Shown here: positions 22,385 through 38,031 of the stretch, piece after piece
Layout of the letters: each line of letters opens with the position of its first letter
Numbering within the stretch: the first letter of the stretch is position 1
Assembly: GCA_044224815.1 (NCBI GenBank)
Contig: JBGAJR010000019.1
Span: forward strand, 1 to 64,000
Length of the DNA stretch: 64,000 bases
Direction of reading: 5' to 3'
DNA from: Polyangiaceae bacterium
GTDB taxonomy: Bacteria; Myxococcota_A; Polyangia; Polyangiales; Polyangiaceae
Position numbers and translations under genes: made by a program
The notes under the pieces: model-generated
What the model was told of the DNA's origin: nothing
The model's database searches: none
Seen by the model: only the letters and a program-made list of their open reading frames with translations

Positions 22385-22620
22385 AGGAGAGAGGATGCGT
22401 CCGTCCGAATCGCGACGCCGCTTAAGTAGTGTGAAGCGCCGGCAGACACACCCGCCCGCGGCCGGCTGCAAGACAGCGCTTTTTCCGCTCAGTCCCGTGG
22501 GGTTGCGGCGCTCGACCACCCGCGACATTCGGCGTCTGGCCCTGGAGTCCGTTCCTCTCCCACATCACGGAAGGCGCGTGGGCGGCGACCTCTGTTACGC
22601 TCCAGGATCGGAGCGCGCCG

Positions 22621-23961
22621 GTGGCATTTTATCCGTGTCCCCACTGCGGACAGCACCACGACAGCACGCTCACGCTGTGCCCGAACACCGGGCGCAGCAT
22701 CACGCCGGGCGCGCCGCCGTCCCGACCGTCGGCGCCGCCGCCGCCGCCCGCGCCGGGTGAGCGCGTGCGCGTCGTTCCGCCGTCCGACGAGGAGATGACG
22801 AGCACCGGCGCGAGCCGCTTGCTCGGCCGCGTGATCGCCGGTCGCTATCGCGTTCGATCGGTGTTGGGCGAAGGCGGAATGGGCACCGTGTTCGACGGCG
22901 AGCACGTGACGCTCGGTCGCTCCGTCGCGATCAAGGTGCTCCATCCGCTGCAAGCGCGCCGGTCGGTGGCGGTGCAGCGTTTCCAGATCGAGGCTCGGGC
23001 CGCCGGCACCATCGGCCACCCGAACATCTGCGAGGTCTACGACATGGGGCAGCTCGAGGACGGGAGCCCGTTCCTCGTGATGGAGCGCCTCTCCGGCGAG
23101 ACGCTCGCCGATCGCCTCGAGCGCGAGGGCGCGCTCTCCGTTCCGGAGATCGTCGACGTCATGATGCAGGTGCTCTCGGGGCTCCATGCCGCGCACGAGA
23201 AGGGCATCCTCCACCGCGACATCAAGCCGGAGAACATCTTCTTGAACGGGCGCATCGGCCTCGCGCCCATCGCGAAGATCCTCGACTTCGGTGTCGCGAA
23301 AGACACCACGGTCGAGCGGCCCGAGGATCTCGAGCTCACGATGACCGGCATGGTGATGGGCACGCCGTTTTATCTGTCGCCCGAACAAGCGCGCGGCGAT
23401 CGCGATCTCGATCGGCGCACCGATGTCTACGCGTGCGGCGTGGTGCTGTACGAAGCGCTCACTGGGACGCGGCCCTTCGCGGGCGACAATTACAATCAGC
23501 TCCTGCGATCGATCCTGCTCGCGGAGCCCACGCCGCTCCGCGACCTCCGGCCCGATCTCCCCGACGGCTTCGAGCACGTGGTGGCGCGCGCCATGGCCCG
23601 TCACCGATCGGCGCGCTACGCGAACGCGCTCGATCTCCAGGACGAGCTCGCGCCTTATCACGCCGGCGCCGCGGTCGTTCCGAGCGGCCGCCTTTCGTCG
23701 CCGCCGGCCCCGTCGCGCCGCTCGGTGCCGCCGCCGGCGCCCTCGTCGGGCGCGGGACCGGAGTGGGACGACAACACGGTGTACGACGCCGAGCTCGCTG
23801 CGCGCGTGAGCGCGCACGCGAGTCAGCCTCCGTCGCAACGTCACCCGGGCGCGGCGCGCGTGGACGAGCTCACCTTCGACGAAGAGACCGTGCGCACCAA
23901 TCAGCCCTCGCAGATCGCCAAGGAGATCCGCGAGCAGCTCAAACGCGGCAAGAAGCCCTGA
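22621..23961 (+). CDS. Ser/Thr protein kinase with an N-terminal C4 zinc ribbon
   Basis: CPHCGQHHDSTLTLCP, then GEGGMGTVF, AIKVL, HRDIKPENIFL, DFGVAK and SPEQ. Confidence 0.85.
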   Translation: MAFYPCPHCGQHHDSTLTLCPNTGRSITPGAPPSRPSAPPPPPAPGERVRVVPPSDEEMTSTGASRLLGRVIAGRYRVRSVLGEGGMGTVFDGEHVTLGRSVAIKVLHPLQARRSVAVQRFQIEARAAGTIGHPNICEVYDMGQLEDGSPFLVMERLSGETLADRLEREGALSVPEIVDVMMQVLSGLHAAHEKGILHRDIKPENIFLNGRIGLAPIAKILDFGVAKDTTVERPEDLELTMTGMVMGTPFYLSPEQARGDRDLDRRTDVYACGVVLYEALTGTRPFAGDNYNQLLRSILLAEPTPLRDLRPDLPDGFEHVVARAMARHRSARYANALDLQDELAPYHAGAAVVPSGRLSSPPAPSRRSVPPPAPSSGAGPEWDDNTVYDAELAARVSAHASQPPSQRHPGAARVDELTFDEETVRTNQPSQIAKEIREQLKRGKKP

Positions 23962-23967
23962 GCGTTC

Positions 23968-26010
23968 TCAGGCCGGCGGCAGCGTGCCGCCCGCGAGGAG
24001 CACCCCGAGCTCGGCTTCTGTGACCACGCGCGTGCCGAACTTCTTGGCCTGATCGAGCTTGGTCTTGCCGGTCTTCTCGCCGGCGACCAAGTACGTCGTG
24101 CCCTTTTTCACCGAGTCGTGGATGGCGCCGCCGCGCGCCTTGATGTCGGCGTGGACGTCTTCGCGTTTCCGCGAGAGGACGCCGGTCACGCAGAACGAGC
24201 TCCCCGTCAGCGCGCCTTCGACCACCGCCTCGCGCGGCTGCGGCTTGCCGACGCCGAGCTCGCGGAGCTTCTGCATCAAGTGCCGCGACGTGTCGTCGCG
24301 CAAGAAGTCGACGACGCAGTCCACCATCTTGGGGCCGAAGCCGCGGATGGCGGCCACGTGCTCCCGCGCCTCGCTCTCGCTCCACCCGAGGAGCGTCTCG
24401 AGCGAGCCGGCCGCCTCGGCGAGTTGCTTGGCGGCGACCTGCCCGACCTGGGGAATGCCGAGGCCGCATAGCAGTCGATCGAGCGTGCGCTCGCGCGAGC
24501 GCTCGATGGAGTCGATCACGTTCTTGGCGCTCTTGTCGCCCATGCGCTCGAGCTCGGTGATCTGCGCCGCGGTCAGGCGATAGAGATCGGCCACGTCTTT
24601 GACGAGGCCGCTGTCGACGAGCTGCTCGATGAGCGAGATCCCGAGCCGATCGACGTCCATCGCGAAGCGCCGCGTGAAGTAGTGCACCGCCGCCTTGAGC
24701 TGCGCCGGGCACGCGCGGTTGGGGCAGCGCACCGTCGCCTCCACGCCGAGCTCGGGGCGATCTTCTTCCCGCAGGCGCGCCTCGACTTTGGTGCCGCACT
24801 CGGGGCACTTGTCGGGCATCACGAACGGCGTCTCGCCGCCGGTGCGCGCTGCCGCGTCCACCGCCACGACCTGGGGGATGATCTCGCCGGCTTTTGCAAT
24901 GTACACGCGATCGCCGATGCGTACGTCGAGGTCGGCGATCTGCCCGGCGTTGTGCAGCGAGGCGCGCGACACGGTGGTGCCACCGAGCTCGACGGGATCG
25001 AGGTTCGCCACCGGCGTGAGCGCGCCGGTGCGGCCGACCTGCACCACGATCTCGCGGACGCGCGTCGCCGCGCGCTCGGCTTCGAATTTGTAGGCGACGG
25101 CCCACTTGGGGAACTTCGACGTGAAGCCGAGGATCTCCTGGGCTCGGTAGCTGTCGACCTTGACGACCGCGCCGTCGGTCTCGAACGGATAGCCGTCGCG
25201 CGCCTCGTCGATGGCTCCGATGGCGTTCATCACTTGCTCCCACGGCACGGTCACCTCGCGCCGGTGGGTGGGGAGGCCTTGCTCGGCGAGCCACGCCAGG
25301 CTCTCTGCGTGTCCGGCGTGCAAGCTCGGTCCTTCCACGAGCTGGTAGAAGATGACGCGGAGCGGGCGCGCCGCGACCTCCTTGGGATCGAGCATGCGGA
25401 TCGACCCGGCGGCGGCGTTGCGCGGGTTGGCGAACGGCTCGAGGCCGGCCGCCTCGCGCTCCACGTTCATGGCCTCGAGATCGCGGCGGTAGAGGACGAC
25501 CTCGCCGCGCAGCGTGATCTTTCCCTGGTGCGGAATGGTGCCCGGGAGGCCGCGCAACGTGCGCGCGTTGACCGTGATGTCCTCGCCGAACTCGCCGTCG
25601 CCGCGCGTCGAGGCTTGCACCAAGCGACCGCCGTCGAAGACCACCTCGAGGCTCCCGCCGTCGAGCTTGGGCTCGACCGTGAAGCGGACGTCGGTCCCGT
25701 CGGGGAGCCCGGTCACCACGCGCCGATGAAACTCGCCCATGTCGTCGGCGGAGTAGGTGTTGTCGAGCGAGAACATGCGGTGCTCGTGCTTCACCTTCAC
25801 CGCGGCCGTGCGCGCCTCGCCACCCACGCGTTGGGTGGGGGACTCGGGAGTGACGAGCTCCGGATGTGCGGCCTCGAGGGCACGGAGGTCGCGGAGGAGC
25901 GCGTCGAACTGGGCGTCGGTGATCGACGCGTCGTCGAGCACGTAATAGCGATAGTTGGCGGCTTCGATCTCGCGGACGAGCGCGGCGTGCTTCTTGGCCG
26001 GGGCGGTCAT
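23968..26010 (-). CDS. ligA: NAD-dependent DNA ligase
   Basis: KxDG adenylation motif region, four-Cys zinc finger (CPECGT...CPNRAC), HhH and BRCT at the C-terminus. The N-terminus YRYYVLDDASITDAQFDALLRDL is LigA-like. Confidence 0.9.
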   Translation of the reverse strand: MTAPAKKHAALVREIEAANYRYYVLDDASITDAQFDALLRDLRALEAAHPELVTPESPTQRVGGEARTAAVKVKHEHRMFSLDNTYSADDMGEFHRRVVTGLPDGTDVRFTVEPKLDGGSLEVVFDGGRLVQASTRGDGEFGEDITVNARTLRGLPGTIPHQGKITLRGEVVLYRRDLEAMNVEREAAGLEPFANPRNAAAGSIRMLDPKEVAARPLRVIFYQLVEGPSLHAGHAESLAWLAEQGLPTHRREVTVPWEQVMNAIGAIDEARDGYPFETDGAVVKVDSYRAQEILGFTSKFPKWAVAYKFEAERAATRVREIVVQVGRTGALTPVANLDPVELGGTTVSRASLHNAGQIADLDVRIGDRVYIAKAGEIIPQVVAVDAAARTGGETPFVMPDKCPECGTKVEARLREEDRPELGVEATVRCPNRACPAQLKAAVHYFTRRFAMDVDRLGISLIEQLVDSGLVKDVADLYRLTAAQITELERMGDKSAKNVIDSIERSRERTLDRLLCGLGIPQVGQVAAKQLAEAAGSLETLLGWSESEAREHVAAIRGFGPKMVDCVVDFLRDDTSRHLMQKLRELGVGKPQPREAVVEGALTGSSFCVTGVLSRKREDVHADIKARGGAIHDSVKKGTTYLVAGEKTGKTKLDQAKKFGTRVVTEAELGVLLAGGTLPPA

Positions 26011-26095
26011 GGCGCGCATCGTACAGCGGTGCTCAGTCGAGGTGAGCTTACGAATCGTGCCGTCCGGTCGGGCGAGTACGAGCCGACCGAACGCG

Positions 26096-27961
26096 TCAGG
26101 GCTTGGACGCGCCGCGCGTCGCGTGCGGCTCGGAGACGATCGTTTCGCCTTCGTCGAGCGGCGGGTCGACCCGGCGCGTCTGCGCCGTGGGCGAGATGCG
26201 CGGGCGCGAAGCGGGATCGGGCGCGGAGGCGCTCGTCGTCGACGCGGGCGGCGCGGGCCGCGAGTCGGGGATCGCTTGCGACTGCGCGGCGAGGGCGCGC
26301 GCGTCTTGGCTGTCGATGCGGATGGTGGGCTCGCTCGGGAGCGATCGATGTTGCTGCTGCCGCTCTTCGAGAGCGCGCGCACCGGCGAGCGCCGCGCGTG
26401 CGAGCGCTCGGATCTCCACCGCGCTCGTGTGCAGCGGCGTCGGCTCTTCGTAGAATCCCGTGGCCGTGTGCGACTGCGGCGCGCGATCGAACGCGGCGAA
26501 TCGCGGGTCGACGTCCGCGGGCGGCTCGCCGCGCACCGCCGGCTCACGCGCGATCGGCACCCGCACCGAGTCCGGGAGCGGCGCGGCCGGTGGCAACGGC
26601 CTTTCGTCGAACGGCGCCGACGACATCCCCTCCGAGTGGACGCCGCGAAGTGCTTCGAGCGCGCTTATGAATTCTTCGGCGCTCTGGTAGCGGAGCTCCC
26701 GATCGCGCGCCATCGCCTTCTTGATGACGAGGTCGAGCTCGGTGGGCAGGCCGGGGCGCAAGCTCGAGAGCGGCTGCGGGTCGTCGCTCAGGATCTTGAG
26801 GAGGATGCCGTGCTCCGACGGCGCCGAGAACGGGCGGGCACCGGTGAGCATCTCGTAGAGCATGACGCCGACGGCGTAGACGTCGACGCGCCCGTCGAGA
26901 TCGCGCTCCCCGCGCGCTTGCTCCGGGGACATGTAGTACGCGGTGCCGATGGCGATGCCGGTGCCGGTGAGGTCGCGCTCCGGTCCGCTCATCGGCTTGG
27001 ACGTGCCGAAGTCGAGCACCTTCACGAACGCGCCGGCGCCGGCGCGTGGCTTGGCGCCGTCGGCGGTGCGATCGACCAAGAAGATGTTGTCGGGCTTCAC
27101 GTCGCGGTGCACGACCCCGGAGCGATGCACGGCGTCGAGCGCGCTCAGCGTCTGCGTCACGATGTCGATGGCCTCGTCGATGGCCATCGGTCGGCCCTCG
27201 GAGATGCGCGTCGCGAGCGACTGACCGTAGAGGCGCTCCATGACGATGTACGGCCGACCGTCCTCGAGTGAGCCGGCGTCGTAGACCACGGCGACGTTCG
27301 GGTGGCCGCACATGCCGGCGGTGCGCGCCTCGCGCATGAAGCGTTTGAGCTGCACCTCGTCGCCGCCGAGATGCGGGTGGAGCACCTTGATCGCCACGAC
27401 GCGACCGATGCCGATGTGCTCGGCCTCGAGGACGACGCCCATGCCGCCCGAGCCGATGGTGCCCCGCACGAGGTACTTGTTGTCGATCGTGCGGAGCCGC
27501 TGCATCGCCGGCGGACCGCTGCGCGCGGCGGCAGGCAGCGGCGGCGGCGTGTTGCGGCGCGCGGCGGCTGGCATCGCGGAGACGGCGCGCGCACCCGGCG
27601 GCGGCGTCGAAGGCTTCTGGCGCGCCGGCGGAGGTGCCGAGGGCTGCTTGCGATCGCCTGGCGGCGGCGGCCGATCGCTGAGCGGTCGCGACCGTGGGAT
27701 GCCGGACGCGCGATCGGAAGAAGGGGGCGGGGGCGCCGGCGGCGCGGGCGGCGGGAACGGCTGAGGAAGCGGCGTCTGTTTCGCGCGCGGGCCACCGGCC
27801 AACGGCGCTTGGCGGGGAACGGAGGGGAGCGAAGGCGCGCGCTTCTGACCACCGTCGGGCTCGCTCGGTCGCAACGACGGAAGGACACCGCCCGTGCGAT
27901 CGCACACGCGAGCTTCTTCCGGGTGCTGTCCCGAGCAGTACGGACAGGGAACGAGCGCCAA
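26096..27961 (-). CDS. Ser/Thr protein kinase with an N-terminal zinc ribbon and a Pro-rich linker
   Basis: CPYCSGQHPEEARVCD, then GSGGMGVV, AIKVL, HRDVKPDNIFL, DFGTSK and SPEQ. Confidence 0.85.
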   Translation of the reverse strand: MALVPCPYCSGQHPEEARVCDRTGGVLPSLRPSEPDGGQKRAPSLPSVPRQAPLAGGPRAKQTPLPQPFPPPAPPAPPPPSSDRASGIPRSRPLSDRPPPPGDRKQPSAPPPARQKPSTPPPGARAVSAMPAAARRNTPPPLPAAARSGPPAMQRLRTIDNKYLVRGTIGSGGMGVVLEAEHIGIGRVVAIKVLHPHLGGDEVQLKRFMREARTAGMCGHPNVAVVYDAGSLEDGRPYIVMERLYGQSLATRISEGRPMAIDEAIDIVTQTLSALDAVHRSGVVHRDVKPDNIFLVDRTADGAKPRAGAGAFVKVLDFGTSKPMSGPERDLTGTGIAIGTAYYMSPEQARGERDLDGRVDVYAVGVMLYEMLTGARPFSAPSEHGILLKILSDDPQPLSSLRPGLPTELDLVIKKAMARDRELRYQSAEEFISALEALRGVHSEGMSSAPFDERPLPPAAPLPDSVRVPIAREPAVRGEPPADVDPRFAAFDRAPQSHTATGFYEEPTPLHTSAVEIRALARAALAGARALEERQQQHRSLPSEPTIRIDSQDARALAAQSQAIPDSRPAPPASTTSASAPDPASRPRISPTAQTRRVDPPLDEGETIVSEPHATRGASKP

Positions 27962-28108
27962 ACCGTGATCCTCGAGGGCTTCGCCGGCCGCGACCGGTCG
28001 AGATTGGAACGTTCTACGGACGAGCTTCCAAGAAGCTTCTCGATGCTACGCGTCGGCGAGAGGGCTCGCCAGCCTCACGCGGCCTTCGCCCTTGAGGCGT
28101 GCAACTCG

Positions 28109-29125
28109 TCAGAATGAAAGATGGAAATCCACGCCGTTGGCCGCGCGGGATCCTCCCACGCGTGGCGTGAGCCGAGCCTGCGAGCCGTGCCCGCCACTCG
28201 GCGACGATGAAATCACGAGGTAGGCGCCGATGCCGGTGAGGATCGCGCCGACGGGCAACGACACGTTCGCGATCCACGCCTGCGCGGACGGAAGGTCACC
28301 CTTCTCTTTCGCGTAAGACTCCGGGGACTGATCGATGCGCGTCTGCGCGTCGTGCACGTTGACGAGGTAAGCGACGCCGAAGCCGGCGCCGAGCGCGAGC
28401 GCGCCGACGCCCGCCGCACCGATCACCCAGCCGAGCCCGGCGTTCGAGCCGCCCGACGGAGCGACTCGGTCGGGCTCGGGCTTCGCCGGTGGCGTCGTGC
28501 TGGGCGGCGGCTCCGGAGCGCGCGGAAGGGGAGTGAGCGGCGGGAGCGTGACCGAGAGGTTCCCACCTTCGGCCGGTACGTCGATCTGACGCATGTATTG
28601 TGCATACGATGGCGCCGCGGCGCGGATCACGTGATTCCCGCCGTCGACCGGGATCGGTGTGCCGAAGCTCGATGGGCGCACCGGCACGTCGTCGAGCGTG
28701 ACCTCGAGCCCGTCGACGATCGTCGTGACCGGCACCTCGACCTTGAGCCGACTCAGCTTGGGCTCGAGCGCGGCGATTCGCTGCTCGGCGAGCGCTGCGC
28801 GGTCGGGGCGCGTGGCGCGCGACGCGGCGAGGACCTCGCGGTGTTGGACCCACGCGGTGGCGATGCGACCGCGCTGCTCGTTGCAGAGGGCGAGGTTGAA
28901 CAACGTGCCCATGGCGCTCGGATCGAGCTTGCGGCTCTCCTCGAACTTGGAGCACGCCGCGTCGACCTTTCCTTCGGCGAGCAGGGTGCGGGCTTCGGTG
29001 AAGAGCGCCTCGGCGGCGGCCGCGCTCTGCGCCGACACTTGCGCGCGCGCGGGCGCGGCGAACGCCACGGCGACGGCGAGGGTGACGATCCCGGCGAGGG
29101 TGGAGGCGCGCATCGTTCGAAGCAC
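28109..29125 (-). CDS. Secreted TPR-like protein with a C-terminal membrane anchor, hypothetical
   Basis: Signal peptide, helical repeats and C-terminal TM segments. It lies 4 nt downstream of the kinase gene, so it is co-operonic. Confidence 0.6.
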   Translation of the reverse strand: MLRTMRASTLAGIVTLAVAVAFAAPARAQVSAQSAAAAEALFTEARTLLAEGKVDAACSKFEESRKLDPSAMGTLFNLALCNEQRGRIATAWVQHREVLAASRATRPDRAALAEQRIAALEPKLSRLKVEVPVTTIVDGLEVTLDDVPVRPSSFGTPIPVDGGNHVIRAAAPSYAQYMRQIDVPAEGGNLSVTLPPLTPLPRAPEPPPSTTPPAKPEPDRVAPSGGSNAGLGWVIGAAGVGALALGAGFGVAYLVNVHDAQTRIDQSPESYAKEKGDLPSAQAWIANVSLPVGAILTGIGAYLVISSSPSGGHGSQARLTPRVGGSRAANGVDFHLSF

Positions 29126-29129
29126 TGGC

Positions 29130-30644
29130 TCAGTTGCGGTCGAGCGCTGCCTTGGACTTGAGCGGATCGACCGGCGCGGCGCTCGGCGCGGCGGCGGGCT
29201 CGGGCGCGCGCGCCGTCGCGTGCACCTTGACCGGTTTCACCGGCGCCGCCTTGGCTGCGCTCGGCGCGGGCGCGGTCGCGGTGGGCTCGGGCTTGGCGAC
29301 GGACGCGGGAGGCGCCGCGGCCGGGGAGACTTCCGCAGTCGCGCTCGGGATGGGCGCGGCGATCTTGGCGGCGCTCACGGTCGGCGCGGTGGCGCCGAGG
29401 GCCGCGGTTGCGATCGGCGGCGGATCGGGCGCCTTTTGTGCGCGCGCGAAGGCGAAAACGAGACCGGCGCTCGCAGCGAACGCCGCGCCGAGGATCATCC
29501 CGTTGCGGCGCGTGACGACCTTGGTCGAGCCGCTCGTCGTTCGCGACGTGGTCGCCCACGCGCGCCCCGTCGCGTGTCCCGATCGCGGCGCGCCCCCGCT
29601 CCGTCGCGGCGACGAATCCACCGCCGAGGGCGGCGGCGCCGAGAGGCGACGAATACGCTCCACCGAGATCGAGGAGTGTCCGCCACCGAAGGGCGCGAGC
29701 TCGGTCGCGAGGTCGAGCACCGATTGAGTGCGCTTCTGCGGATCCTTCTCCAAGCAGCGGCGAACGGCGGCTGCGAGCTCGCTCGGGATGTCGGGGCGGA
29801 GCTCCTTGATGTTGCGGGGCGGATCGGCGGCCACGGCGGCGAGCACCGCCGACGACGACTCACCCCCGAAGGGAATCTTTCCGCACAAGAGCTCGAAGAG
29901 AACGACGCCAAGCGACCACACGTCGCTCCGCGCGTCGACGTTCTTGGCGCTGCGGATTTGCTCTGGCGACATATAGGCCGGCGATCCGAAGACGGCGTGG
30001 GTGTCGGTGAGCGTGATCGCGTCCTTGTCGCCCTGGTCGTGTGCCTTGGCGATCCCGAAGTCGAGGATCTTGATGAGCGGCGTGCGATCGGGGCGCTGGG
30101 TCAAGAAGAGGTTCGACGGTTTGAGATCGCGATGGACGATCCCTTGCGCGTGCGCCTCGGCGAGGCCCTCGCAGGCTTGGAGCACGAAGTCGACGGCCTC
30201 CGCGATCGGGAGCGCCCCGCGATCGGAGAGCACGGCGCCGAGGTCGATGCCCGAGAGGTGCTCCATCACGATGTACGGCAGACCCTCGGGGGTCATCGCG
30301 ATGTCGTGCACGCGAACCACGTGCTCGCCTTTGATGCGCAACGTGGCCTTGGCTTCGCGGAGGAAGCGCTCCGACACCGCCGGATCCTTCTTGGCGTCGG
30401 CGCGGAGGAACTTGATGGCGACGAGCTCGCCGAGCGCCTTGTGTCGCGCCTCGACGACCACGCCCATTCCGCCGCTCCCGAGGACGCGCTCGATGACGTA
30501 CTTCTCGGCCACGACGTCGCCGATGCGCGGCAGCGGGAGGCCGCGCACGGACTCGATGGTCTTCAAGACCTCGGGGTCGTCGATGGTGGTACGATCCGCC
30601 ACGATCTTCGATGGTAGCAGCGGCTCCGATCCGGGGTCACCCAA
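29130..30644 (-). CDS. Ser/Thr protein kinase with a C-terminal TM segment and an Ala/Pro-rich extracytoplasmic tail
   Basis: GSGGMGVVV, AIKFL, HRDLKPSNLFL, DFGIAKA and SPEQ, then the TM helix ILGAAFAASAGLVFAFA. Confidence 0.85.
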   Translation of the reverse strand: MGDPGSEPLLPSKIVADRTTIDDPEVLKTIESVRGLPLPRIGDVVAEKYVIERVLGSGGMGVVVEARHKALGELVAIKFLRADAKKDPAVSERFLREAKATLRIKGEHVVRVHDIAMTPEGLPYIVMEHLSGIDLGAVLSDRGALPIAEAVDFVLQACEGLAEAHAQGIVHRDLKPSNLFLTQRPDRTPLIKILDFGIAKAHDQGDKDAITLTDTHAVFGSPAYMSPEQIRSAKNVDARSDVWSLGVVLFELLCGKIPFGGESSSAVLAAVAADPPRNIKELRPDIPSELAAAVRRCLEKDPQKRTQSVLDLATELAPFGGGHSSISVERIRRLSAPPPSAVDSSPRRSGGAPRSGHATGRAWATTSRTTSGSTKVVTRRNGMILGAAFAASAGLVFAFARAQKAPDPPPIATAALGATAPTVSAAKIAAPIPSATAEVSPAAAPPASVAKPEPTATAPAPSAAKAAPVKPVKVHATARAPEPAAAPSAAPVDPLKSKAALDRN

Positions 30645-30674
30645 ACGGCGGAGCCAGGAGCCCCGCGCACACGT

Positions 30675-31967
30675 TCAGGTACCGAAGGGGAGCATGGAGG
30701 CGCGGTCCCACGTTCCGCTCGCCTCTTCGATACCCCCAGGCCCGTCGCCGCCCGACGCTGCGTCGGCGAAGAATGCGAGGAGCTCGTCGCGTCGCGCGCG
30801 CGCGTCGGCGCGCCCGAGCTCGATCAGCTGGCGGCAATAGGTGCCGTCGAAGAGGAGATAGCTCGCGAGGTCGGCCTCGGCGCCGGCGCCGAGATCGAGG
30901 AGCGCGAAGAGGCGCTTGGTGAGGAGCGGATCGCCGCGGTAGCGGCCGCGGCGCACGTGCTCGCTCGCGAGGCGACCGAGATCTTCGCTCGGACGAACGA
31001 CGCAAGCGCGTACGTAGCGGTAAGGCACGCCGCCGCGCTCGAGGGCCCGCTCGCTCATCGTCTTGACGAAGTCGGGGCCGAAGCCCTTCGTGCCGTCGAC
31101 GAGCACGTTGTTGAGGCGGCTCAAGAGCTCGAGGTCCACGTCGACGTGATCGAGCAAGAAAGCGTTCAGCACCTTGCCGAGCAAGAACGCGGCGCCGGGC
31201 GCGGTGACTTGGTTCTCCACGCCCTCGACTGCGTTCGAGCCTTTGACCTCGCGTGAGCTGCCGGTGACGAACACGTGGGTCGCGCCGAGCCGCAGCGCGG
31301 GGGCGATCGGAGTGTTCTGACGGAGGCCGCCGTCCAAGTAGAGCTCGTCGTCGATGCGTACGGCCGGGAAGAGCAGCGGGATCGCGGCGCTCGCGAGGGC
31401 GTGCTCGGGGCCGATATGGTCTGGCCGAAAGTGCGTGCGCGGTGGCGGCGGCGGGATCTCCACGTCGGGCGCGGTCTGCATGAAGACCACGGTGCGACCG
31501 GTGGACACTTCGGTGGTGGACACGCTGAGCGCGTGGAGGTGACGCTTGCGGAGCGACCGCGCCACGGCGCGCCAGCTGATTTCGCGCTGCACGAGGCTCG
31601 CCATCGGCCGAACGTCGAAGAGGCCGTGGCCCTCCCGCCCGCCGCCGAGCGCGATCCGCGGCAGCCCGACCACTTGCCGGAAGCCGAAGCCGAGCACCCG
31701 CGTGATCTCGAGCTCGGTCCACAGGTCGACGAGCCTCCGCAGGCCGAGCATCGGATCGAGGAGGTGCGCGGCCAGAAAGCACGCGTTGATCGCGCCGACG
31801 CTCGTGCCGGAGAGAATGTCGACGCGCGGCGGCTCTCCGCAGAGCCGCGCGAGCTCGTCGAACACGTACCAGAGGACGCCGACCTCGTAGGCGCCGCGCG
31901 CTCCGCCGCCGGAGAGGATCATGGCGAGGCGCTTCTTCTTCTGGGACGTGATGACGGGCTCGATCAT
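30675..31967 (-). CDS. Patatin-like phospholipase
   Basis: GGGARG oxyanion motif, GTSVG serine motif and DGG aspartate, plus a ~140-aa C-terminal extension. Its start ATG overlaps the stop of the giant gene (ATGA). Confidence 0.8.
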   Translation of the reverse strand: MIEPVITSQKKKRLAMILSGGGARGAYEVGVLWYVFDELARLCGEPPRVDILSGTSVGAINACFLAAHLLDPMLGLRRLVDLWTELEITRVLGFGFRQVVGLPRIALGGGREGHGLFDVRPMASLVQREISWRAVARSLRKRHLHALSVSTTEVSTGRTVVFMQTAPDVEIPPPPPRTHFRPDHIGPEHALASAAIPLLFPAVRIDDELYLDGGLRQNTPIAPALRLGATHVFVTGSSREVKGSNAVEGVENQVTAPGAAFLLGKVLNAFLLDHVDVDLELLSRLNNVLVDGTKGFGPDFVKTMSERALERGGVPYRYVRACVVRPSEDLGRLASEHVRRGRYRGDPLLTKRLFALLDLGAGAEADLASYLLFDGTYCRQLIELGRADARARRDELLAFFADAASGGDGPGGIEEASGTWDRASMLPFGT

Positions 31968-34900
31968 GCGGTGGGCGCCTCGTGCTGGGTGGCCCCCGCC
32001 TCCAATGGATCGGACTTGGCGCCGCGCTCAAGAGAACGCGGCCCCAAGAGCTCCTGTACCGCGGTTCGCTTCCCGAAGAGGACGCGGAGCTGCGGGTCGC
32101 GGATGGTCTGCATCAAGGCGGCGGCGTGCGACATGGCGCGGGTCTTCGCGAGCACCGCCTCGGGCGACCCGGCCGCGGTGAGCGCTTTTGTGCATAATAC
32201 ACGAACCTCGAGGCCGTACTCGCATCCTTGCAGCGTCTCGACCGCGCCGAGCGCGGTCGTCGCGAGGAGCGTCGCCGAGTGGAGCTCGCCCGCAGTGGCG
32301 CGCGCGGCGGCTTCGATCGCGAGCGCATAGAAGTGGAAGCTCACGAGGGTGAGGTCTTCGGCCTGGCGGCGCGCCGCGAGCGCGAGATCGGCGGCGTGCG
32401 CGGCCTGGCCGCGTGCGAGCTCCACCGAAGCGCGAGCGACGGCGGCGTGCACTCCGTCGTAGGCGTTGCCGGTGGCCGCGTTGAGCGCGGACGCGTCGGC
32501 GAGGAACGTGGTCGCGGCGTCGATCTCCCCGCACTCGAGGTAGACCTCGGCGCTGATGATGAGCGTGTCCGCGCGACCGTCTTGATCGCCGTAGCGCTCG
32601 TGCGCGTCGCGCGAACGCTCGAGGTACGCCTTGGCGCGGGCGAAGTCGCCGAGGCGCGCGTATGCCGTGCCGATGTTGGTGAGCGTGTTGGCGAGTTGGA
32701 AGCGCCCACCCATTCCGAGGTCGATCTGGATCGACTCGAGCGCGAGCCCGACGGCGTCTTCGTAGCGACCCTGGCAATACATCGCGAACGCCAGCGCGCT
32801 CTTGGCGCGGGCCTCTTGTCGGCGTGCGCCGACGCGACGGAAGACCGCGATGGCCTCGACATACGCGTCCACCGCCTCGCGGACGCGACCGACGCGGCGG
32901 AGGAGGACGCCGCGCGTGCGCAGCACCTCGGCGCGCGCGCGCGGGAGGACGAGCGGATTCTCTTCGGTGCCGCAGGCGGAGAGGGCGCGGTCGCAGGCCG
33001 CCAGCGCGCGCTGCACCGCCCCGAGCTCGCGCAGGAGCTCGCTCGAGAGCTGCTCCGCCTCCACGGTGAGCTGCGCGCTGCCGATCTTTCGTGCCAGGTC
33101 GGCCGCGCGCTCGGCCAGCGGGAGACCGTGCCGGAGCCGACCTTCGTCGAGATCGAAGCGCGCGGTGCGGACGAGCGCGAGGCCGATGGCTCTCGCGGTC
33201 CCGGAGAGGCGCGCGCCTCGACGCAGCGCCTCGAGGTGCGCGATGCGCTCGCGGCGGCGTCCGAGCACGCGGAGGAGCGCTTCGAGAGACTCGTGCGCGG
33301 TGATCGCGCGCGGGTCTTCGGGCCGCACGAGCGTGAGCACCTTGTTGTAGTAGCGGGCGGCGAGCTTGAGTTGGCTTCCGTTGCGCGCGGCGTTCCCGGC
33401 CTCGACGTAGAAGTCGGCCGCGACCGAGGGCTCGCCGCCGAGCGTGAGGTGGCGGGCGACGATCGCCGCCGACAGCCCACGCCCGAGCGAGCCTTGCCCG
33501 AGGAAGAGGCCGAGCGCGCGATGCATCGCCGCGCGGTCACGCGGCTCGAGCGCCTTGTAGGCCACGTCGCGGGTGAGGGGGTGTCGGAAGTCGACGAGGT
33601 CGCCTTTGCGATCGCAAAGGCCGCGCGCACAGAGGCGGACGAGCGCGTCTTCGCCGTCGGCGTGGGCCAAGTCCACGATCTGATCGGCGGGGAGCGGCCC
33701 GCCAGCGATGGCGAGCCAGTCGACGACGGCGTGCTCCTCGGTGGGGAGCTCGCGCAGGCGATCGCCGAGGAGCTGCTCGAGCGTCGACGGGAGCTGCCAG
33801 GCGTCGGTCTCCGAGCGGCGTACGAGTGCGAAGCGTGGCTCCGCTCCCTCCTCACGCTCCTCACGGATCTCCAGCGTTCCGCGCTCGAGGAGCGCGTCGA
33901 CCATCTCGAGCAAGAAGAACGGGTTGCCGCCGACCTTGGGCAAGAGGTCGGCGCACACCTGCCGAACGCCTTCGCGGACACCGAGCCGGTTCTCCACGAG
34001 GCGCACCTGCTCTTCGGGCGAGAGGCCTTGGAGCTCGATGCGCACGACGCCGTCGAGGATGGCGGCGCAGCGATCGTCGGGGCGCGAGACGAGCACGAAG
34101 AGGATCGGCAAGGGATCCGGCGCGCGGACGAGCTCGGTGAACGTGTCGAGGCTCTGTCGATCCGCCCAGTGGAGCCCCTCGACGACGACGACGAGCGGCT
34201 GCGTGAGCGCGATCGCGGCGAAGAGCGACCGGAGCCCGGAGCCGATCAGCTTGCGTCGATAGGTCGGGTCGTCGTCGTCGCCGCCGCCGAGGGGAGCGTT
34301 GGTCGCGAGCTCGGCGAGCCGCGCGACGACCGGGTTCTGCGCGTCGCCTTGCGCAGCACCGCCGCCCGCGCGCGCGATCAGGGAGACGACGTCGTCGAAC
34401 GGCTCGTCGCCGGTGATGCCGATGCACTCGCGTACCGCCGCAGCCACCGCGCTGTACGGAACCTCCATCTTCACCGGCGAGGCCTCGACGCGGACGAGGC
34501 GCGCGTTGGGCGGGAGCTCGCTCGTGAACGCCGTCACGAGCGCGCTCTTTCCGATACCCATCTCGCCGACGACCGCGCGACACGTGAGCGTGCCCATGCC
34601 GCTCACCGCGTGGTGATAAGATGCGTGGAGATCGTTTCGCTCGACGTCGCGACCGACGAGATCACTCTGCGCGCTGGCCATCGTCGCCACGCGCTCGTCG
34701 CGCGAGAGGCTGCGAAGGAGCGCGTAGATGCGCATCGTCGGCGGGACGTTCTCGACGTCGGCTTGGGGCGCGAGCTCGAGCGTCGGCGCGTCGTCCCACT
34801 TGAACTCGCGCCGCACCAGGCGATACACGCCGCCGGCGACCCACGTTTTGTGGAGCGGCGTGGCTCGCATGAGCACGTCGGCGAGGTGCGTCGCTGGATC

Positions 34901-36400
34901 GTGGAGTCGGTAGCGGAGCAAGTTGCCTTGCGTGTCGCGGAAGCCCGACGCGATGCCGCGCACGATGCCGAGCGACGCGCCCAGCTCGGTGGGCGAATCG
35001 TCGGCGAGGCCGGCGATGGCCTCGTGAGTGTCGAGGGCCAGCCAGGCCGCATCGGATGCGGCGCGCGCGGTGTTGGCCGTGAGCCCGGCCACGGCGTGGG
35101 CCTCGACGTCGCTCGACCAGATCCAGCAGCGGACGCCGCGCTTGTAAGCGATCTCTTCGAGCATGTTGCGCAGGCGATCGAGCATGCGCTCTCCGCGCAC
35201 GCGGTCCGCGACGATGGCCTCGTGGACGCCATGAAGGCGCAGCGTGACGATCGCGACGTGGCGCACCTCGCGCGGTCCAGCCGCCGGCGGCGGAGGCTCC
35301 GGCGCAGCGTCGGACACCTCGCCCCGCGTGGAGAGCGGAGCGCCGCTTCGACGCGACGGCGGCGCCGACGAGTTGCGGGATTCGGGCGGTGACGACGTCG
35401 CCTTGGCGGGGCCGAGCTCCACCTTCGGCGCTTCGCGCGCGACGAGGTTCGAGATCAGCGCTTCGACGCTCGACGCGTCGACGAGCTCTTGCCGAACGAG
35501 GAGCGCGCGTGCGACGGCGCTGGTGAGCTCTCGCGCCGTGCCGTAGCGCTGGTCGCGGTGGGGCATCAGGCACGTCATGACGATCGCCTCGAGCTCGGGC
35601 GGTACGTCGCGCGCGTACGTGCTCGGAGGCTCCACGATGCCGGAGCGCACGATGTCGAGGAGCGCTTCGCCGCCCAGGCCCGAGTGGAGCGGGCGACCGG
35701 CCAGGATCTCCCAGAGGATGACGCCGAGCGAGTAGACGTCGCTGCGCCGGTCGACGCGCTCGCCGCGCGCCTGCTCGGGCGACATGTATCCGAACTTTCC
35801 CTTGAGGACGCCGGTCTCCTCGACGAACAGCTTGGCGCTCGCGATCCCGAAATCGGTGATCTTCACCGCGCCGTCGTACGAGAGGAGGATGTTCTGCGGC
35901 GACACGTCGCGGTGGACGATCTCGAGGGGCGCCCCCGACTCGTCCTTCTTCTCGTGCGCGTAGTGGAGGCCCTTGGCCGCTTCGCCGATGACGTGCGCGC
36001 CGATCCAGGGCGGGAGCCGCGTCCCCTTGGCCTTGGCCGACGACATGAGCATGCCGAGGTCGGGGCCCTCGACGTACTCCATGACGAGGAGTTGACCCTC
36101 GTCGCCGCCGTCGGAGAGCTCGTAGACCTGAACGACGTTGGGATGGTTGAGGCGAGTCGCGAGCTGCGCCTCCTCCACGAACATGGTTCGGAAGCGGCGG
36201 GATGAGCCGTGGGTCGGGAGGATGCGCTTGACGACGAGGAGCTTGTAGGTCCCTTCGGCGCCGCGCTTGCGAGCCAAAAAGACCTCAGCCATGCCGCCCT
36301 CGCCGAGGCGCCGGACGATCTCGAACTGGGCGAGCTCGCGCACTTCTTCGGCCGCGCGGGGCGGCGTCGAGGCGGCGTCGTTGGGGACGGAGGGCTCCAC
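31964..36400 (-). CDS. Giant multidomain protein: N-terminal Ser/Thr kinase domain, a nucleotide-cyclase-like region, a STAND/AAA P-loop NTPase and a C-terminal TPR array
   Basis: Kinase motifs VVKRIL, HRDVSPQN, DFGIASA and SPEQ. Walker A is GEMGIGKSALV. Long TPR-like helical repeats follow. 1478 aa. Confidence 0.8.
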   Translation of the reverse strand: MEPSVPNDAASTPPRAAEEVRELAQFEIVRRLGEGGMAEVFLARKRGAEGTYKLLVVKRILPTHGSSRRFRTMFVEEAQLATRLNHPNVVQVYELSDGGDEGQLLVMEYVEGPDLGMLMSSAKAKGTRLPPWIGAHVIGEAAKGLHYAHEKKDESGAPLEIVHRDVSPQNILLSYDGAVKITDFGIASAKLFVEETGVLKGKFGYMSPEQARGERVDRRSDVYSLGVILWEILAGRPLHSGLGGEALLDIVRSGIVEPPSTYARDVPPELEAIVMTCLMPHRDQRYGTARELTSAVARALLVRQELVDASSVEALISNLVAREAPKVELGPAKATSSPPESRNSSAPPSRRSGAPLSTRGEVSDAAPEPPPPAAGPREVRHVAIVTLRLHGVHEAIVADRVRGERMLDRLRNMLEEIAYKRGVRCWIWSSDVEAHAVAGLTANTARAASDAAWLALDTHEAIAGLADDSPTELGASLGIVRGIASGFRDTQGNLLRYRLHDPATHLADVLMRATPLHKTWVAGGVYRLVRREFKWDDAPTLELAPQADVENVPPTMRIYALLRSLSRDERVATMASAQSDLVGRDVERNDLHASYHHAVSGMGTLTCRAVVGEMGIGKSALVTAFTSELPPNARLVRVEASPVKMEVPYSAVAAAVRECIGITGDEPFDDVVSLIARAGGGAAQGDAQNPVVARLAELATNAPLGGGDDDDPTYRRKLIGSGLRSLFAAIALTQPLVVVVEGLHWADRQSLDTFTELVRAPDPLPILFVLVSRPDDRCAAILDGVVRIELQGLSPEEQVRLVENRLGVREGVRQVCADLLPKVGGNPFFLLEMVDALLERGTLEIREEREEGAEPRFALVRRSETDAWQLPSTLEQLLGDRLRELPTEEHAVVDWLAIAGGPLPADQIVDLAHADGEDALVRLCARGLCDRKGDLVDFRHPLTRDVAYKALEPRDRAAMHRALGLFLGQGSLGRGLSAAIVARHLTLGGEPSVAADFYVEAGNAARNGSQLKLAARYYNKVLTLVRPEDPRAITAHESLEALLRVLGRRRERIAHLEALRRGARLSGTARAIGLALVRTARFDLDEGRLRHGLPLAERAADLARKIGSAQLTVEAEQLSSELLRELGAVQRALAACDRALSACGTEENPLVLPRARAEVLRTRGVLLRRVGRVREAVDAYVEAIAVFRRVGARRQEARAKSALAFAMYCQGRYEDAVGLALESIQIDLGMGGRFQLANTLTNIGTAYARLGDFARAKAYLERSRDAHERYGDQDGRADTLIISAEVYLECGEIDAATTFLADASALNAATGNAYDGVHAAVARASVELARGQAAHAADLALAARRQAEDLTLVSFHFYALAIEAAARATAGELHSATLLATTALGAVETLQGCEYGLEVRVLCTKALTAAGSPEAVLAKTRAMSHAAALMQTIRDPQLRVLFGKRTAVQELLGPRSLERGAKSDPLEAGATQHEAPTA

Positions 36401-36459
36401 CGAGCCAAACAGTGTATCAGGCCGAGAACGGGTGGTATCTTTTAGACCGAGTCCGCGTC

Positions 36460-38031
36460 ATGAGCGACACCGCGCTTCCGGCGCCTCTAGCCCAAGGAAC
36501 GCTCGAGAAGCGGCCGCTCGCGCACCTCCTCGCGTACGTGTACGAGCGGCGCCTCGGCGGTTCGCTTCTGCTCGGTGACGCGGAGAGCCCTATCGGCGCC
36601 GTCGTCTTCCGCGCCGGAGAGCCGATCAAGGCGCAGTCTTCGCAGCACGGCGACGTCTGGGACGCGCTCGCCGAGCTCCCCGCATCGACTGCGTTCGCAT
36701 ACTACGCTGACCACGACGCGCTCCCCGACCACGACGGCGGCGGCGCTGCAGCGCTCGAGGCGCTCATGCGTGTCCTCCAGCGCCGACCGCCGACGGCGCT
36801 CGTCCAGGCGACGCTCGCGCGCATCGGCGAGTCGGCGATGATGCTCGAGCCGGCGCTCAGCGTCGCTTCGCTCGGCCTCGGCCGAGCGGCGCGCGACGCC
36901 CTCGAGCTCTTGCGCGCGGGGCCCTTCACGATTTCTGACGTCCGCGACGCGCCCCCGCTCCGCGCCCAGGCCGACCTCGTCGTGTACGCCCTCCTCATCA
37001 CCAAGGCGGCGCGCATCGGGGCGGGGTCGTCGCCGAACCTCGACGCTCAGCGCGCGAGCTCGACGGACCTCGGCTCGCCGCCGTCGTCGTCGCCCGAGGC
37101 GCCGGTACCCGACTCCAGCGAGCCGGCGGCAGTCGGTCGCGTTCGACTGACGCGATCGAGCCAGAAGCTCGCGCCGCTCAAGGAAGAGCCCACGATCCTC
37201 TCCAGCTACGACGAGCGGGCCTCGCTCCCGCCGCCGCCCAAACCCGCGCCATCGAGCCCCGACTTCGGGGCACGTCGGCAGGAGATCCTCGAGCGCGCCG
37301 CCCACATCGACAAGCAGACCTACTTCGAGATGTTGGGGATCGCGCCCGAGACGCCGACGTCGCAGGTCCAGGCCGTCTTTCTCACGTTGGCCAAGCGCTG
37401 GCACCCCGACCGGCTCGGGCCCGAGCTCGCGGACGTGCGTGACGCCTGCTCGCGAGTCTTCGCTCGCCTCAGCGAGGCGGCGGCCACCCTCGGGAACGAG
37501 GAGCATCGTGCAAAGTACATGCGTCTCCTCGATGAAGGCGGCGCCACTCCCGAGGACCAAGAAAAAATCGGCGCGGTGCTCGAAGCCGCCTCGGCCTTCC
37601 AGAAGGCCGAGGTCATGCTCAAGCGCGGCGACACCGCGAAAGCCGAGGAGTACTGCTCCACGGCGGTCCGCCTCGATCCGCAACCCGACTACACGGCGCT
37701 CCTCGGCTGGCTCGAGTCGCAAAAGCCCGAGAACCAGTCGCCCGAGGCGACGCAGCGGTACGAAGCCGTCATGAGCGCGGCCATCGCCCAGAACGAGCGT
37801 TGCGAGCGCGCGATCTTCTACCGCGGCATGCTGCGAAAGCGACGCGGTGATCCGAGCGCCATCGAGGACTTTCGCCGCGCGTTCGAGCTGAACCCCAAGA
37901 ACCTCGACGCTCAGCGCGAGGTGCGGGTCTTCGACATGCGTTTGCAGAAAGAGCGGGAGAAGTCGGCGCAGCAGCAAGGGAACGGTCCCGATCGCAAGCC
38001 GAGCTTCATCGGGCGCCTCTTCAAGAAGTGA
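36460..38031 (+). CDS. DUF4388 (PatA-like) domain plus DnaJ J-domain plus TPR protein
   Basis: TYFEMLGI...KRWHPDR contains the HPD J-domain motif. The N-terminus GTLEKRPLAHLLAYV...GSLLL is DUF4388-like. Start chosen at MSDTALP to leave a 59-nt divergent intergenic region. Confidence 0.7.
   Translation: MSDTALPAPLAQGTLEKRPLAHLLAYVYERRLGGSLLLGDAESPIGAVVFRAGEPIKAQSSQHGDVWDALAELPASTAFAYYADHDALPDHDGGGAAALEALMRVLQRRPPTALVQATLARIGESAMMLEPALSVASLGLGRAARDALELLRAGPFTISDVRDAPPLRAQADLVVYALLITKAARIGAGSSPNLDAQRASSTDLGSPPSSSPEAPVPDSSEPAAVGRVRLTRSSQKLAPLKEEPTILSSYDERASLPPPPKPAPSSPDFGARRQEILERAAHIDKQTYFEMLGIAPETPTSQVQAVFLTLAKRWHPDRLGPELADVRDACSRVFARLSEAAATLGNEEHRAKYMRLLDEGGATPEDQEKIGAVLEAASAFQKAEVMLKRGDTAKAEEYCSTAVRLDPQPDYTALLGWLESQKPENQSPEATQRYEAVMSAAIAQNERCERAIFYRGMLRKRRGDPSAIEDFRRAFELNPKNLDAQREVRVFDMRLQKEREKSAQQQGNGPDRKPSFIGRLFKK

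Follow-up and report, generated by a model that had tools for sequence, protein, structure and literature searches.

The gene for a giant, PknK-like Ser/Thr kinase and the patatin gene directly downstream of it, both located in the 64,000-nucleotide stretch of Polyangiaceae DNA analyzed here (the window), are best read from genome comparison as a two-gene, translationally coupled chromosomal unit inherited across the order Polyangiales, with a range that takes in Polyangiaceae, Sorangium, Labilithrix, Pendulispora, and Sandaracinaceae-type genomes. Since the two genes are adjacent in nearly every related Polyangiales genome examined, their products probably work together, and our preferred reading, to which we give a probability of roughly 0.55, is of a chromosomal, order-wide signaling unit, not an immune system, in which a cytosolic lipid hydrolase is under the control of a PknK-like STAND kinase. 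An earlier note on this DNA had placed the pair in a minus-strand run of four ORFs; all four are present where it had put them, each with a coding-type GC3 of 0.85–0.88. The features of the locus, with the subdivisions of the giant gene, are as follows:

36412..38031, plus strand: divergent DnaJ-TPR gene (DnaJ and TPR matches; likely start, ATG at 36460)
31964..36400, minus strand: giant gene, PknK-like (ORF, 1478 aa, with Pfam domains and 120 orthologues)
35534..36325, minus strand: kinase domain, residues 26–289 (Pkinase, E 6.1e-37)
34673..35269, minus strand: pseudo-cyclase, residues about 378–576 (class III cyclase-homology fold lacking catalytic residues)
34094..34660, minus strand: STAND (AAA_16) NTPase core, residues 581–769 (AAA_16, E 7.1e-17)
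32081..34093, minus strand: helical arm and TPR sensor array, residues about 770–1440 (TPR_12, TPR_1, and TPR_2 matches)
30675..31967, minus strand: patatin-like lipid acyl hydrolase gene, cytoplasmic product (ORF, 430 aa, PF01734)
29130..30644, minus strand: STK2, a membrane-anchored Hanks Ser/Thr kinase (ORF, 504 aa, Pkinase E 1.3e-52)
28109..29125, minus strand: TPR/PEGA-like membrane protein with a signal peptide (ORF, 338 aa, weak TPR_2 and PEGA matches)

The ATGA overlap that had been claimed for the stop codon of the giant gene and the start codon of the patatin gene can be read directly in the sequence. The two further junctions depend on the choice of start codon: a 30-nt gap between the patatin gene and STK2 results if STK2 begins at TTG 30644 and is lost if it begins at the in-frame GTG 30602, which is also possible, and the 4-nt gap between STK2 and the fourth gene is obtained only with GTG 29125, the gap being 16 nt with ATG 29113, from which the product starts with a canonical signal peptide (MRASTLAG...). 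A long antisense ORF (32228–35392, plus strand) was dismissed as a high-GC artifact because both the coding GC3 signal and the homologues belong to the minus-strand frame. GC content is even along the whole window, and the neighbors of the pair are ordinary chromosomal genes (ligA, a thiolase, a LysR regulator, and a P450). No promoter-like sites turned up in a scan of the interval 25.9–36.7 kb, whose terminator-like sites lie within coding regions and occur at about the rate expected by chance.

Of the 75 species loci that could be evaluated, 74 have the patatin gene immediately downstream of the STAND-kinase gene, and the same arrangement is seen in Sorangium and in Sandaracinaceae-type genomes. 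Across these paired loci (74/75), the 4-nt overlap is kept in 41, and the gap is at most 15 nt in 53. In the Sorangium So ce strains, the giant protein is 54% and the patatin 61% identical to those encoded here, with a 4-nt overlap and unrelated flanks; in Pendulispora, too, the pair sits amid unrelated flanking genes, and in four Sandaracinaceae-type loci, again with unrelated flanks, the giant protein is still collinear over its full length at 32–38% identity, the patatin being at about 42% (measured for locus L084). Both genes are single copy and in a chromosomal context. Compared within the same loci, the giant protein is 56–69% and the patatin 66–73% identical, versus 43–57% for LigA, so that by this measure the pair evolves more slowly than the neighboring ligA. 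It could be objected that such adjacency is functionally meaningless, that the two genes simply stay together as a stable transcription unit, and that the giant protein is a generic PknK-type regulator: myxobacterial genomes are crowded with kinases, four of which lie inside 14 kb at the present locus, and at one locus (L056), the giant kinase gene is present without the patatin. However, the pair outlasts complete turnover of its flanks in at least four different contexts, persists down to 32–38% kinase identity, and retains the start/stop overlap in most genomes; because persistence of this kind is unexpected without selection, we regard a meaningless adjacency as very improbable.

The proposal that all four genes form one operon did not survive the comparison: the giant and patatin genes are the only two conserved together, and the other two are not found beside the pair elsewhere. 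STK2, which has a single predicted transmembrane helix (residues 382–400) and is probably co-transcribed with the pair in this genome, has no orthologue adjoining the pair in other loci; its sole good match (49% identity) lies elsewhere in L036. The fourth gene product, with a signal peptide, TPR, a weak PEGA match, and two hydrophobic helices, has a relative only in L036, where that gene adjoins the STK2-like gene. These two genes, the fourth product being the partner of STK2, are a separate cassette that happens to adjoin the pair in this genome; in locus L003, ligA follows directly after the patatin gene. Most Polyangiaceae and Labilithrix loci carry the DnaJ-TPR gene divergently upstream of the giant gene; absent from the Pendulispora, Sorangium, and Sandaracinaceae-type loci, it is a frequent neighbor outside the core.

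The domain architecture that had been suggested for the giant protein (kinase, cyclase-like region, STAND NTPase, TPR) holds throughout, the cyclase-like region included. Pfam places Pkinase at residues 26–289, AAA_16 at 581–769, and TPR at 1236–1306; 120 full-length orthologues with 62–100% identity are available for comparison, and their mean conservation is 80% in the kinase versus about 65% in the other domains. The kinase domain scores 127.9 bits against PF00069 (cutoff 31.7), and residues K58, H163-R-D165, N170, D183-F-G185, and P208-E209 are invariant among the 120 orthologues. The more distant Sorangium and Sandaracinaceae-type orthologues retain the Lys, the catalytic Asp, the Asn, and the DFG and SPE motifs, with HRD changed to HSD or HCD in two of them. 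The kinase domain is predicted to be active on the strength of these motifs, and with neither a transmembrane helix nor a signal peptide predicted, the giant protein is best read as a cytoplasmic, PknK-like Ser/Thr kinase.

Between the kinase and the NTPase lies a region for which there is no Pfam match even at E ≤ 10. An AlphaFold2 model of residues 367–586 has a pLDDT of 90.6, and when it was compared with the PDB using Foldseek, the top 50 matches were all class III adenylyl/guanylyl cyclases (E values down to 2.5e-12, with a probability of 1.0); assignment to the class III nucleotidyl cyclase fold (Guanylate_cyc, PF00211) comes from the predicted structure only. With catalytic positions assigned by motif register and secondary structure, the β1 metal-binding Asp is replaced by R388 (R, H, Q, K, or V across orthologues), the transition-state Asn by H, Y, or F at position 505, and the Arg by V509. 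An active class III cyclase has two metal-binding Asp residues, the Asn, and the Arg and matches the family HMM, and the catalytic residues are absent here across all lineages examined, which makes the domain a pseudo-cyclase; it probably serves in dimerization or ligand binding. When the PDB was searched by sequence, with a profile covering the stretch from the pseudo-cyclase through the NTPase to the arm, only marginal P-loop matches and no solved relative were returned.

The identification of a STAND P-loop NTPase was borne out. The AAA_16 match scores 62.8 bits (cutoff 32.6), and all of the hallmarks of the clade are intact: Walker A (G612-x-x-G-x-G-K618-[ST]) is invariant among the 120 orthologues; Walker B reads hhhh-E741 followed by Gly or Ser, with Glu in 109 and Asp in 11 orthologues; and the sensor-1 R773 and the GxP motif (G825-N-P-F), just past the AAA_16 core, are likewise invariant and are followed by the C-terminal TPR array. 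The distant orthologues, too, keep GxxGxGK[ST], hhhh[E/D], R773, and GGNPF. Because Walker B has a single acidic residue ([E/D][G/S]), ATP hydrolysis may be weak. No HTH or other DNA-binding domain is detected in the C-terminal 478 aa, even at E ≤ 10, and the MalT model gives 14 bits against a cutoff of 537; the protein is thus not a MalT/LuxR-type STAND regulator. Mean conservation of the TPR region is about 65%, the same as in the rest of the giant protein outside the kinase, so the region is not hypervariable and, as judged from the orthologues, the TPR sensor is not diversifying.

The patatin scores 109.8 bits against PF01734 (E 2.5e-31, cutoff 27.7) and has the oxyanion loop (G20-G-G-A-R-G25), the GxSxG nucleophile motif (G54-T-S56-V-G58), and the DGG motif with the catalytic Asp (D212-G-G214) of patatin-like phospholipases, all three invariant in 120 orthologues; the Ser-Asp dyad (S56 and D212) is intact. 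Neither a transmembrane helix nor a signal peptide is predicted, and its sequence is best read as that of a soluble, cytoplasmic lipid acyl hydrolase. The AlphaFold2 model (pLDDT 54.5) is too low in confidence for use. Homologues with 35–46% identity in other lineages have no such kinase upstream, and a comparison with these unpaired proteins found no Ser or Thr that is conserved specifically in the kinase-paired patatins: all eight conserved Ser/Thr positions in the paired proteins are Ser or Thr in most or all of the unpaired homologues as well, one of which has Cys at position 148. We therefore propose no phosphosite. The conserved C-terminal tail of the patatin and the presence of the DnaJ-TPR gene do not strictly co-occur.

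In its overall plan, the giant protein resembles Mycobacterium tuberculosis PknK (Rv3080c), which also combines an N-terminal Hanks kinase with an AAA_16 STAND module and MalT-like TPRs and is likewise cytoplasmic and without an HTH, and the NCBI annotation pipeline names two of the orthologues (P0014 and P0036) PknK. Unlike PknK, it carries a pseudo-cyclase between the kinase and the NTPase and is paired with a patatin in a conserved, translationally coupled arrangement; PknK, to our knowledge, shows neither feature. The module order, (kinase)-class III cyclase fold-AAA_16-TPR, is shared with cyclase-STAND-TPR proteins, among which the mycobacterial Rv0386-type proteins are cyclase-ATPase-TPR-LuxR, and with the TOMM system kinase/cyclase fusion model TIGR03903. 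Sinorhizobium cyclase-AAA_16 proteins of this group were found here, and the distant plasmid matches from tblastn bear annotations for adenylate/guanylate cyclase domain proteins and for a TOMM kinase/cyclase fusion. In contrast to these proteins, the cyclase domain of the giant protein is without catalytic residues in every lineage, and there is no HTH. A TOMM assignment was rejected: TIGR03903 gives 160.6 bits against a cutoff of 705.75 and matches the kinase and NTPase-TPR parts only, leaving its cyclase segment unmatched, and the neighborhood contains no TOMM biosynthesis genes.

The earlier note had seen in the adjacency of a STAND NTPase and a patatin the logic of Avs/NLR-like or CBASS-type defense. 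There is some outward likeness to both. As in CBASS with CapV, a patatin-fold lipase gene lies beside a gene that attracts a “cyclase” label; as in Avs, bacterial NLR-like STAND proteins, and PLP-1, a fungal NLR with the architecture patatin-NB-ARC-TPR, an enzymatic output is linked to a STAND NTPase whose sensor is made of TPRs. However, a dead class III fold stands in place of the CD-NTase of CBASS, the pair is slow evolving and part of the core genome, and, unlike in PLP-1, the patatin has its own gene, with a kinase as the fused output. No CD-NTase is present in the annotated neighborhood (19.4–43.2 kb of the window), the patatin reaches 43.4 bits against a cutoff of 200 for the CBASS lipase model NF041079, and PADLOC run on residues 371–1478 returned only a weak TPR match to PDC-S39 and no STAND or Avs model. 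We found no defense or mobile-element genes around the pair, no homologues on phages, and no close homologues on plasmids, where matches are below 35% identity. Slow evolution, a non-diversifying TPR region, the lack of matches to defense models, and the lack of close mobile homologues leave the defense analogy unsupported, and a distribution covering 74 of 75 related species loci is not the sporadic one of an anti-phage system. A STAND NTPase beside a patatin is, by itself, no indication of a defense system. The further suggestion, a phospholipase tied to a signal-transduction ATPase system, is reasonable given the 74/75 pairing and the intact STAND and patatin motifs.

The same evidence bears on regulated cell death of the NLR type, in which the STAND/TPR part would sense a phage or a developmental or kin signal and the kinase would unleash the patatin on the cell's own membrane, be it in abortive infection or in developmental autolysis. 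The combination of an N-terminal enzymatic domain with a STAND NTPase and TPRs is NLR/Avs-like, the patatin has weak similarity to CBASS lipase models (E 2.4e-11 and E 2.8e-12), patatins are membrane-lytic effectors both in CBASS and in PLP-1, and developmental lysis does occur in myxobacteria. Against this stand the single-copy, vertically inherited nature of a pair more conserved than ligA and the sensor, model-score, and gene-context results just given, and we consider cell death unlikely. Its most specific form, a core-genome death switch of the Polyangiales in which the STAND/TPR kinase, cued by infection or development, would phosphorylate the patatin and so cause lysis, is more doubtful still; if true, it would open altruistic lysis in multicellular myxobacteria to genetic study and would be an instance of bacterial kinase-relayed NLR signaling to a separate phospholipase executioner.

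Under the preferred reading, control of a cytosolic lipid hydrolase by the PknK-like kinase, an intracellular cue would be bound by the TPR or pseudo-cyclase part of the giant protein and would induce nucleotide-dependent oligomerization of the STAND module; oligomerization would activate the kinase, and the active kinase would in turn control the patatin, via phosphorylation or direct binding, with altered turnover of membrane or storage lipids as the outcome. That the two proteins interact, which of them controls the other, and which lipid is the substrate are all inferences here: neither adjacency nor translational coupling proves an action of the kinase on the patatin, and the physiological role of the pair is argued from its evolutionary pattern only. 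Control might also run in reverse, with a product of the patatin (a free fatty acid or lysolipid) being sensed through the pseudo-cyclase or the TPRs of the kinase, whose real substrates would lie elsewhere; regulators of lipid metabolism are an example of what such substrates might be. The tight linkage of the pair would fit this, as would the lack of a pair-specific phosphosite in the patatin, and the strong conservation of the dead cyclase fold (about 65% on average, with numerous invariant positions) suggests that it has kept a binding function; fatty acids and other small ligands are regulators of some class III cyclase domains. Yet a complex or an enzyme-substrate pair would account at least equally well for translational coupling and roughly equimolar expression, and the present data fit either direction; we hold reversed control to be rather unlikely.

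The literature searched contains no published description of a kinase-STAND and patatin pair and no mention of a patatin together with PknK, and the eLife paper on conflict systems (PMC7159879) does not mention patatin. Kinase control of the lipase, as we prefer to read the pair, would make it a physiological or developmental control circuit akin to those of eukaryotic patatin-family lipases. These are under kinases in several cases (cPLA2 under MAPK, ATGL/PNPLA2 under AMPK and PKA, and yeast Tgl4 under Cdk1), and the likeness, a Ser/Thr kinase regulating a cytosolic patatin-fold hydrolase, is one of proposed logic and not of orthology. Myxobacteria have hundreds of eukaryote-like kinases, almost none with a known target; comparative genomics here nominates a patatin lipase as the specific partner of one large STAND kinase, and what was an anonymous “PknK-like” gene thereby yields a kinase-to-lipase hypothesis that can be tested in cultured Sorangium, Labilithrix, or Pendulispora. 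We know of no earlier bacterial case of a patatin-family lipase controlled by a Ser/Thr kinase. If confirmed, the pair would be a counterpart to the regulation of cPLA2, ATGL, and Tgl4 in eukaryotes, and a function would be assigned to the conserved pseudo-cyclase between the kinase and the STAND switch.

We examined four minus-strand open reading frames that an earlier note had called in this window, all of which are present at exactly the positions claimed and have the codon-position GC profile (GC1/GC2/GC3) expected of real genes (4/4), the window having a GC content of ∼69% and a uniform composition:

31964-36400, minus strand, giant protein (1478 aa) with kinase, cyclase-fold, STAND NTPase, and TPR parts
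30675-31967, minus strand, patatin (430 aa)
29130-30644, minus strand, STK2, a Hanks-type membrane kinase
28109-29125, minus strand, TPR/PEGA membrane protein

The TGA of the giant gene overlaps the patatin ATG, as claimed (ATGA). The other two spacings depend on the choice of start codon: the 30-nt gap before the STK2 gene stands if TTG at 30644 is the start and is lost with GTG at 30602, and the 4-nt gap before the TPR/PEGA gene stands with GTG at 29125 and becomes 16 nt with ATG at 29113, the more plausible start, which yields a canonical signal peptide. Long opposite-strand reading frames (e.g., 32228-35392, plus strand) were rejected as high-GC artifacts.

Using an alignment of the cyclase-fold and NTPase parts as query and one genome per species, we obtained 80 loci from Polyangiaceae, Labilithrix, and related MAGs (50-70% identity). 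As expected from the proposed link between the STAND-kinase and patatin, 74 of the 75 loci that extend far enough have a patatin ortholog (56-76% identity) immediately downstream, on the same strand, with a 4-nt overlap in 41 of the 74 and a gap of at most 15 nt in 53. Sorangium So ce genomes keep the two genes (giant 54%, patatin 61% identity), again with a 4-nt overlap, amid completely different flanking genes, and four Sandaracinaceae-type loci also have them, with a giant kinase that is 32-38% identical and collinear over its full length and a patatin that is ∼42% identical (L084). More distant patatins (35-46% identity; loci L085-L087, L089, and L090) have no such kinase upstream; locus L088 is uninformative, its contig ending too soon. 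Giant gene and patatin form an old two-gene unit with coupled translation, and adjacency without functional meaning is very improbable. In the sole exception, L056 (13255-15809), the giant gene is followed, in place of patatin, by a 766-aa reading frame on the opposite strand; a 766-aa gene without Pfam matches also lies just after patatin in Pendulispora (L001).

The other two genes do not belong to this unit. When all window proteins were compared by tblastn with the scanned loci and the Pendulispora locus, STK2 and the TPR/PEGA protein were not found adjoining the pair in any other locus, and in L003 ligA directly follows patatin; the proposed four-gene operon is therefore not upheld as a conserved unit. 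Good matches to both proteins (49% and 45%, respectively) occur in just one other locus, L036, where they are adjacent at ∼3-2054, on the upstream side of the giant gene and ∼7 kb away from it. Because they occur together there, we regard them as an independent two-gene cassette, which looks mobile. Other features of the neighborhood are as follows:

36412-38031 (likely ATG at 36460), plus strand, DnaJ (J-domain) and TPR gene, divergent, ∼60 nt ahead of the mechanical start of the giant gene
26096-27961, minus strand, Hanks-type kinase
23968 to ∼26050, minus strand, NAD-dependent ligA
22435-23961, plus strand, Hanks-type kinase
51902-54589 and 18083-19276, minus strand, amidohydrolase with thrombospondin type 3 repeats and thiolase

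In most loci of Polyangiaceae and Labilithrix, the DnaJ-TPR gene is syntenic and precedes the giant gene in divergent orientation; Pendulispora, Sorangium, and Sandaracinaceae-type loci lack it, which places it outside the core. So short a divergent spacer points to a mis-set start codon in one of the two genes. Four Hanks-type kinases fall within 14 kb (22435-36400), with ligA among them, and ligA and the 22435-type kinase stay near the pair in several other species. The amidohydrolase and thiolase also lie near the pair in Pendulispora albinea (L001 1-2137 and 22695-23879), a co-occurrence that hints at long-range synteny across genera. Two Sandaracinaceae-type loci encode a protein with a cNMP-binding domain (PF00027) and a DUF4215 protein at a distance of three to four genes on the downstream side of the pair (L091 11550-12848; L093 10519-11847), a curious find given the dead cyclase domain of the kinase. 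In Sorangium, a further giant kinase (1717 aa; Pkinase-AAA_16-GAF-STAS) is encoded on the other strand, a few kilobases away from the pair (L082 16006-21159; L083 14635-19788).

Pfam places three domains in the giant protein, some of whose orthologs carry the NCBI label "PknK":

residues 26-289, Pkinase
residues 581-769, AAA_16
residues near 1236-1306, TPR repeats

The kinase appears active, to judge from K58, HRD163-165, N170, DFG183-185, and PE208-209, all invariant in 120 orthologs. Two distant orthologs (L084 3471-7736; L092 2733-7004) are non-RD kinases with HSD or HCD in place of HRD; the catalytic Asp, the Asn, and DFG are kept. A loss of Walker B and sensor motifs, which the earlier note had entertained, is not borne out: the NTPase has Walker A (GxxGxGK[ST] in the orthologs), Walker B (hhhh[E/D] followed by G or S, the second acidic residue being replaced), the sensor-1 arginine R773, and the GxP motif GGNPF. 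Family profile searches found no HTH in the giant protein, which is therefore not a MalT/LuxR-type regulator.

Residues 377-580 have no Pfam match even at E ≤ 10 and do not match the TIGR03903 cyclase segment. A structure predicted from 27 orthologs (pLDDT 90.6) has class III adenylyl or guanylyl cyclases as all of its top 50 Foldseek matches in the PDB (E down to 2.5e-12, probability 1.0, identity 10-21%), so the "cyclase-like" call is correct at the level of fold; it does not extend to activity. With canonical motifs read onto the predicted secondary structure, that is, in motif register rather than by residue-level superposition, the β1 metal-binding Asp is replaced by R388 (R/H/Q/K/V among orthologs), the second, D431, is only partly kept, and H/Y/F505 and V509 stand in place of the transition-state Asn and Arg. 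The modeled domain is thus predicted not to be an active cyclase, and since the losses recur in Sorangium, Pendulispora, and Sandaracinaceae-type orthologs, the pseudo-enzyme state appears to be old.

The patatin (PF01734, 2.5e-31) has an oxyanion loop (G20-G25), and its Ser-Asp dyad, the conservation of which had been singled out for checking, is invariant in 120 orthologs, as is the loop (nucleophile S56 in GTSVG; D212 in DGG). Neither a TM helix nor a signal peptide is predicted, and the protein is therefore taken to be cytoplasmic. It belongs to a large family of ∼400-aa patatin-like proteins (588 cluster representatives at E ≤ 1e-30), only distantly related to PlpD and to CBASS lipases (43 bits for the lipase model, cutoff 200). 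An AlphaFold2 model of full-length patatin had low confidence (pLDDT 54.5) and was left unused. Many Polyangiaceae and Labilithrix orthologs (L002-L079) have an acidic, Gly-rich C-terminal extension of ∼30 aa (30675-30764 in the window; residues ∼401-430) with the conserved end SG[TS]-W-[DE]...S..[IL]P[ILF]GT-COOH; Sandaracinaceae-type paired patatins and unpaired homologs lack it, and Sorangium has it only in part. The extension resembles a docking peptide, perhaps for a TPR domain, but its presence does not strictly track that of the DnaJ-TPR neighbor.

Several results speak against the Avs/NLR/CBASS defense reading put forward earlier. No CD-NTase was found near the pair, the cyclase fold being class III and inactive; PADLOC matched the full-length giant protein to generic kinase models and its NTPase-TPR part alone to no STAND defense model. 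Across the same genome pairs, the giant protein (56-69%) and patatin (66-73%) are more conserved than the essential LigA (43-57%), and conservation in the TPR region equals that of the NTPase (∼65%), which is not the pattern of a sensor in an arms race. The pair is surrounded by ordinary chromosomal genes (ligA, thiolase, LysR regulator, P450, aldo-keto reductase), no phage homologs were found, and plasmid matches are below 35% identity, those to the STAND part bearing annotations of cyclase-AAA_16 proteins or TOMM kinase/cyclase fusions. That the pair is a conserved death switch of the NLR kind, which the STAND-TPR architecture might recall, is unlikely.

In the giant protein, a kinase that looks active is joined to a STAND module of the ATP-switch type, a TPR sensor, and a dead but conserved cyclase fold; its partner is a cytosolic patatin whose catalytic residues are intact. 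We favor, at slightly better than even odds (∼0.55), a reading in which the giant kinase controls patatin and lipid turnover. In the control steps that we infer, a signal would be bound by the TPR or pseudo-cyclase part, binding would lead to STAND oligomerization and kinase activation, the kinase would regulate patatin via phosphorylation or docking, and this would adjust membrane or storage-lipid turnover. The L056 locus without patatin, the single acidic residue in Walker B, and the failure to find a paired-specific phosphosite in patatin count against this model. The reverse direction, in which the kinase would take its signal from a lipid released by patatin, we consider quite unlikely.

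PknK-type kinase-AAA_16-TPR proteins are among the closest known relatives of the giant protein. Cyclase-AAA_16-TPR proteins and TIGR03903 fusions share its module order but differ in having an active cyclase and other gene contexts, and CBASS/CapV, fungal NLR PLP-1, and eukaryotic kinase-regulated patatin lipases resemble the pair by analogy only. Literature searches found no description of the pair; what appears new is a STAND signaling kinase that contains a pseudo-cyclase and has a dedicated patatin partner encoded by a gene of its own. The pair may offer a concrete, testable kinase-target hypothesis in an under-studied kinome.
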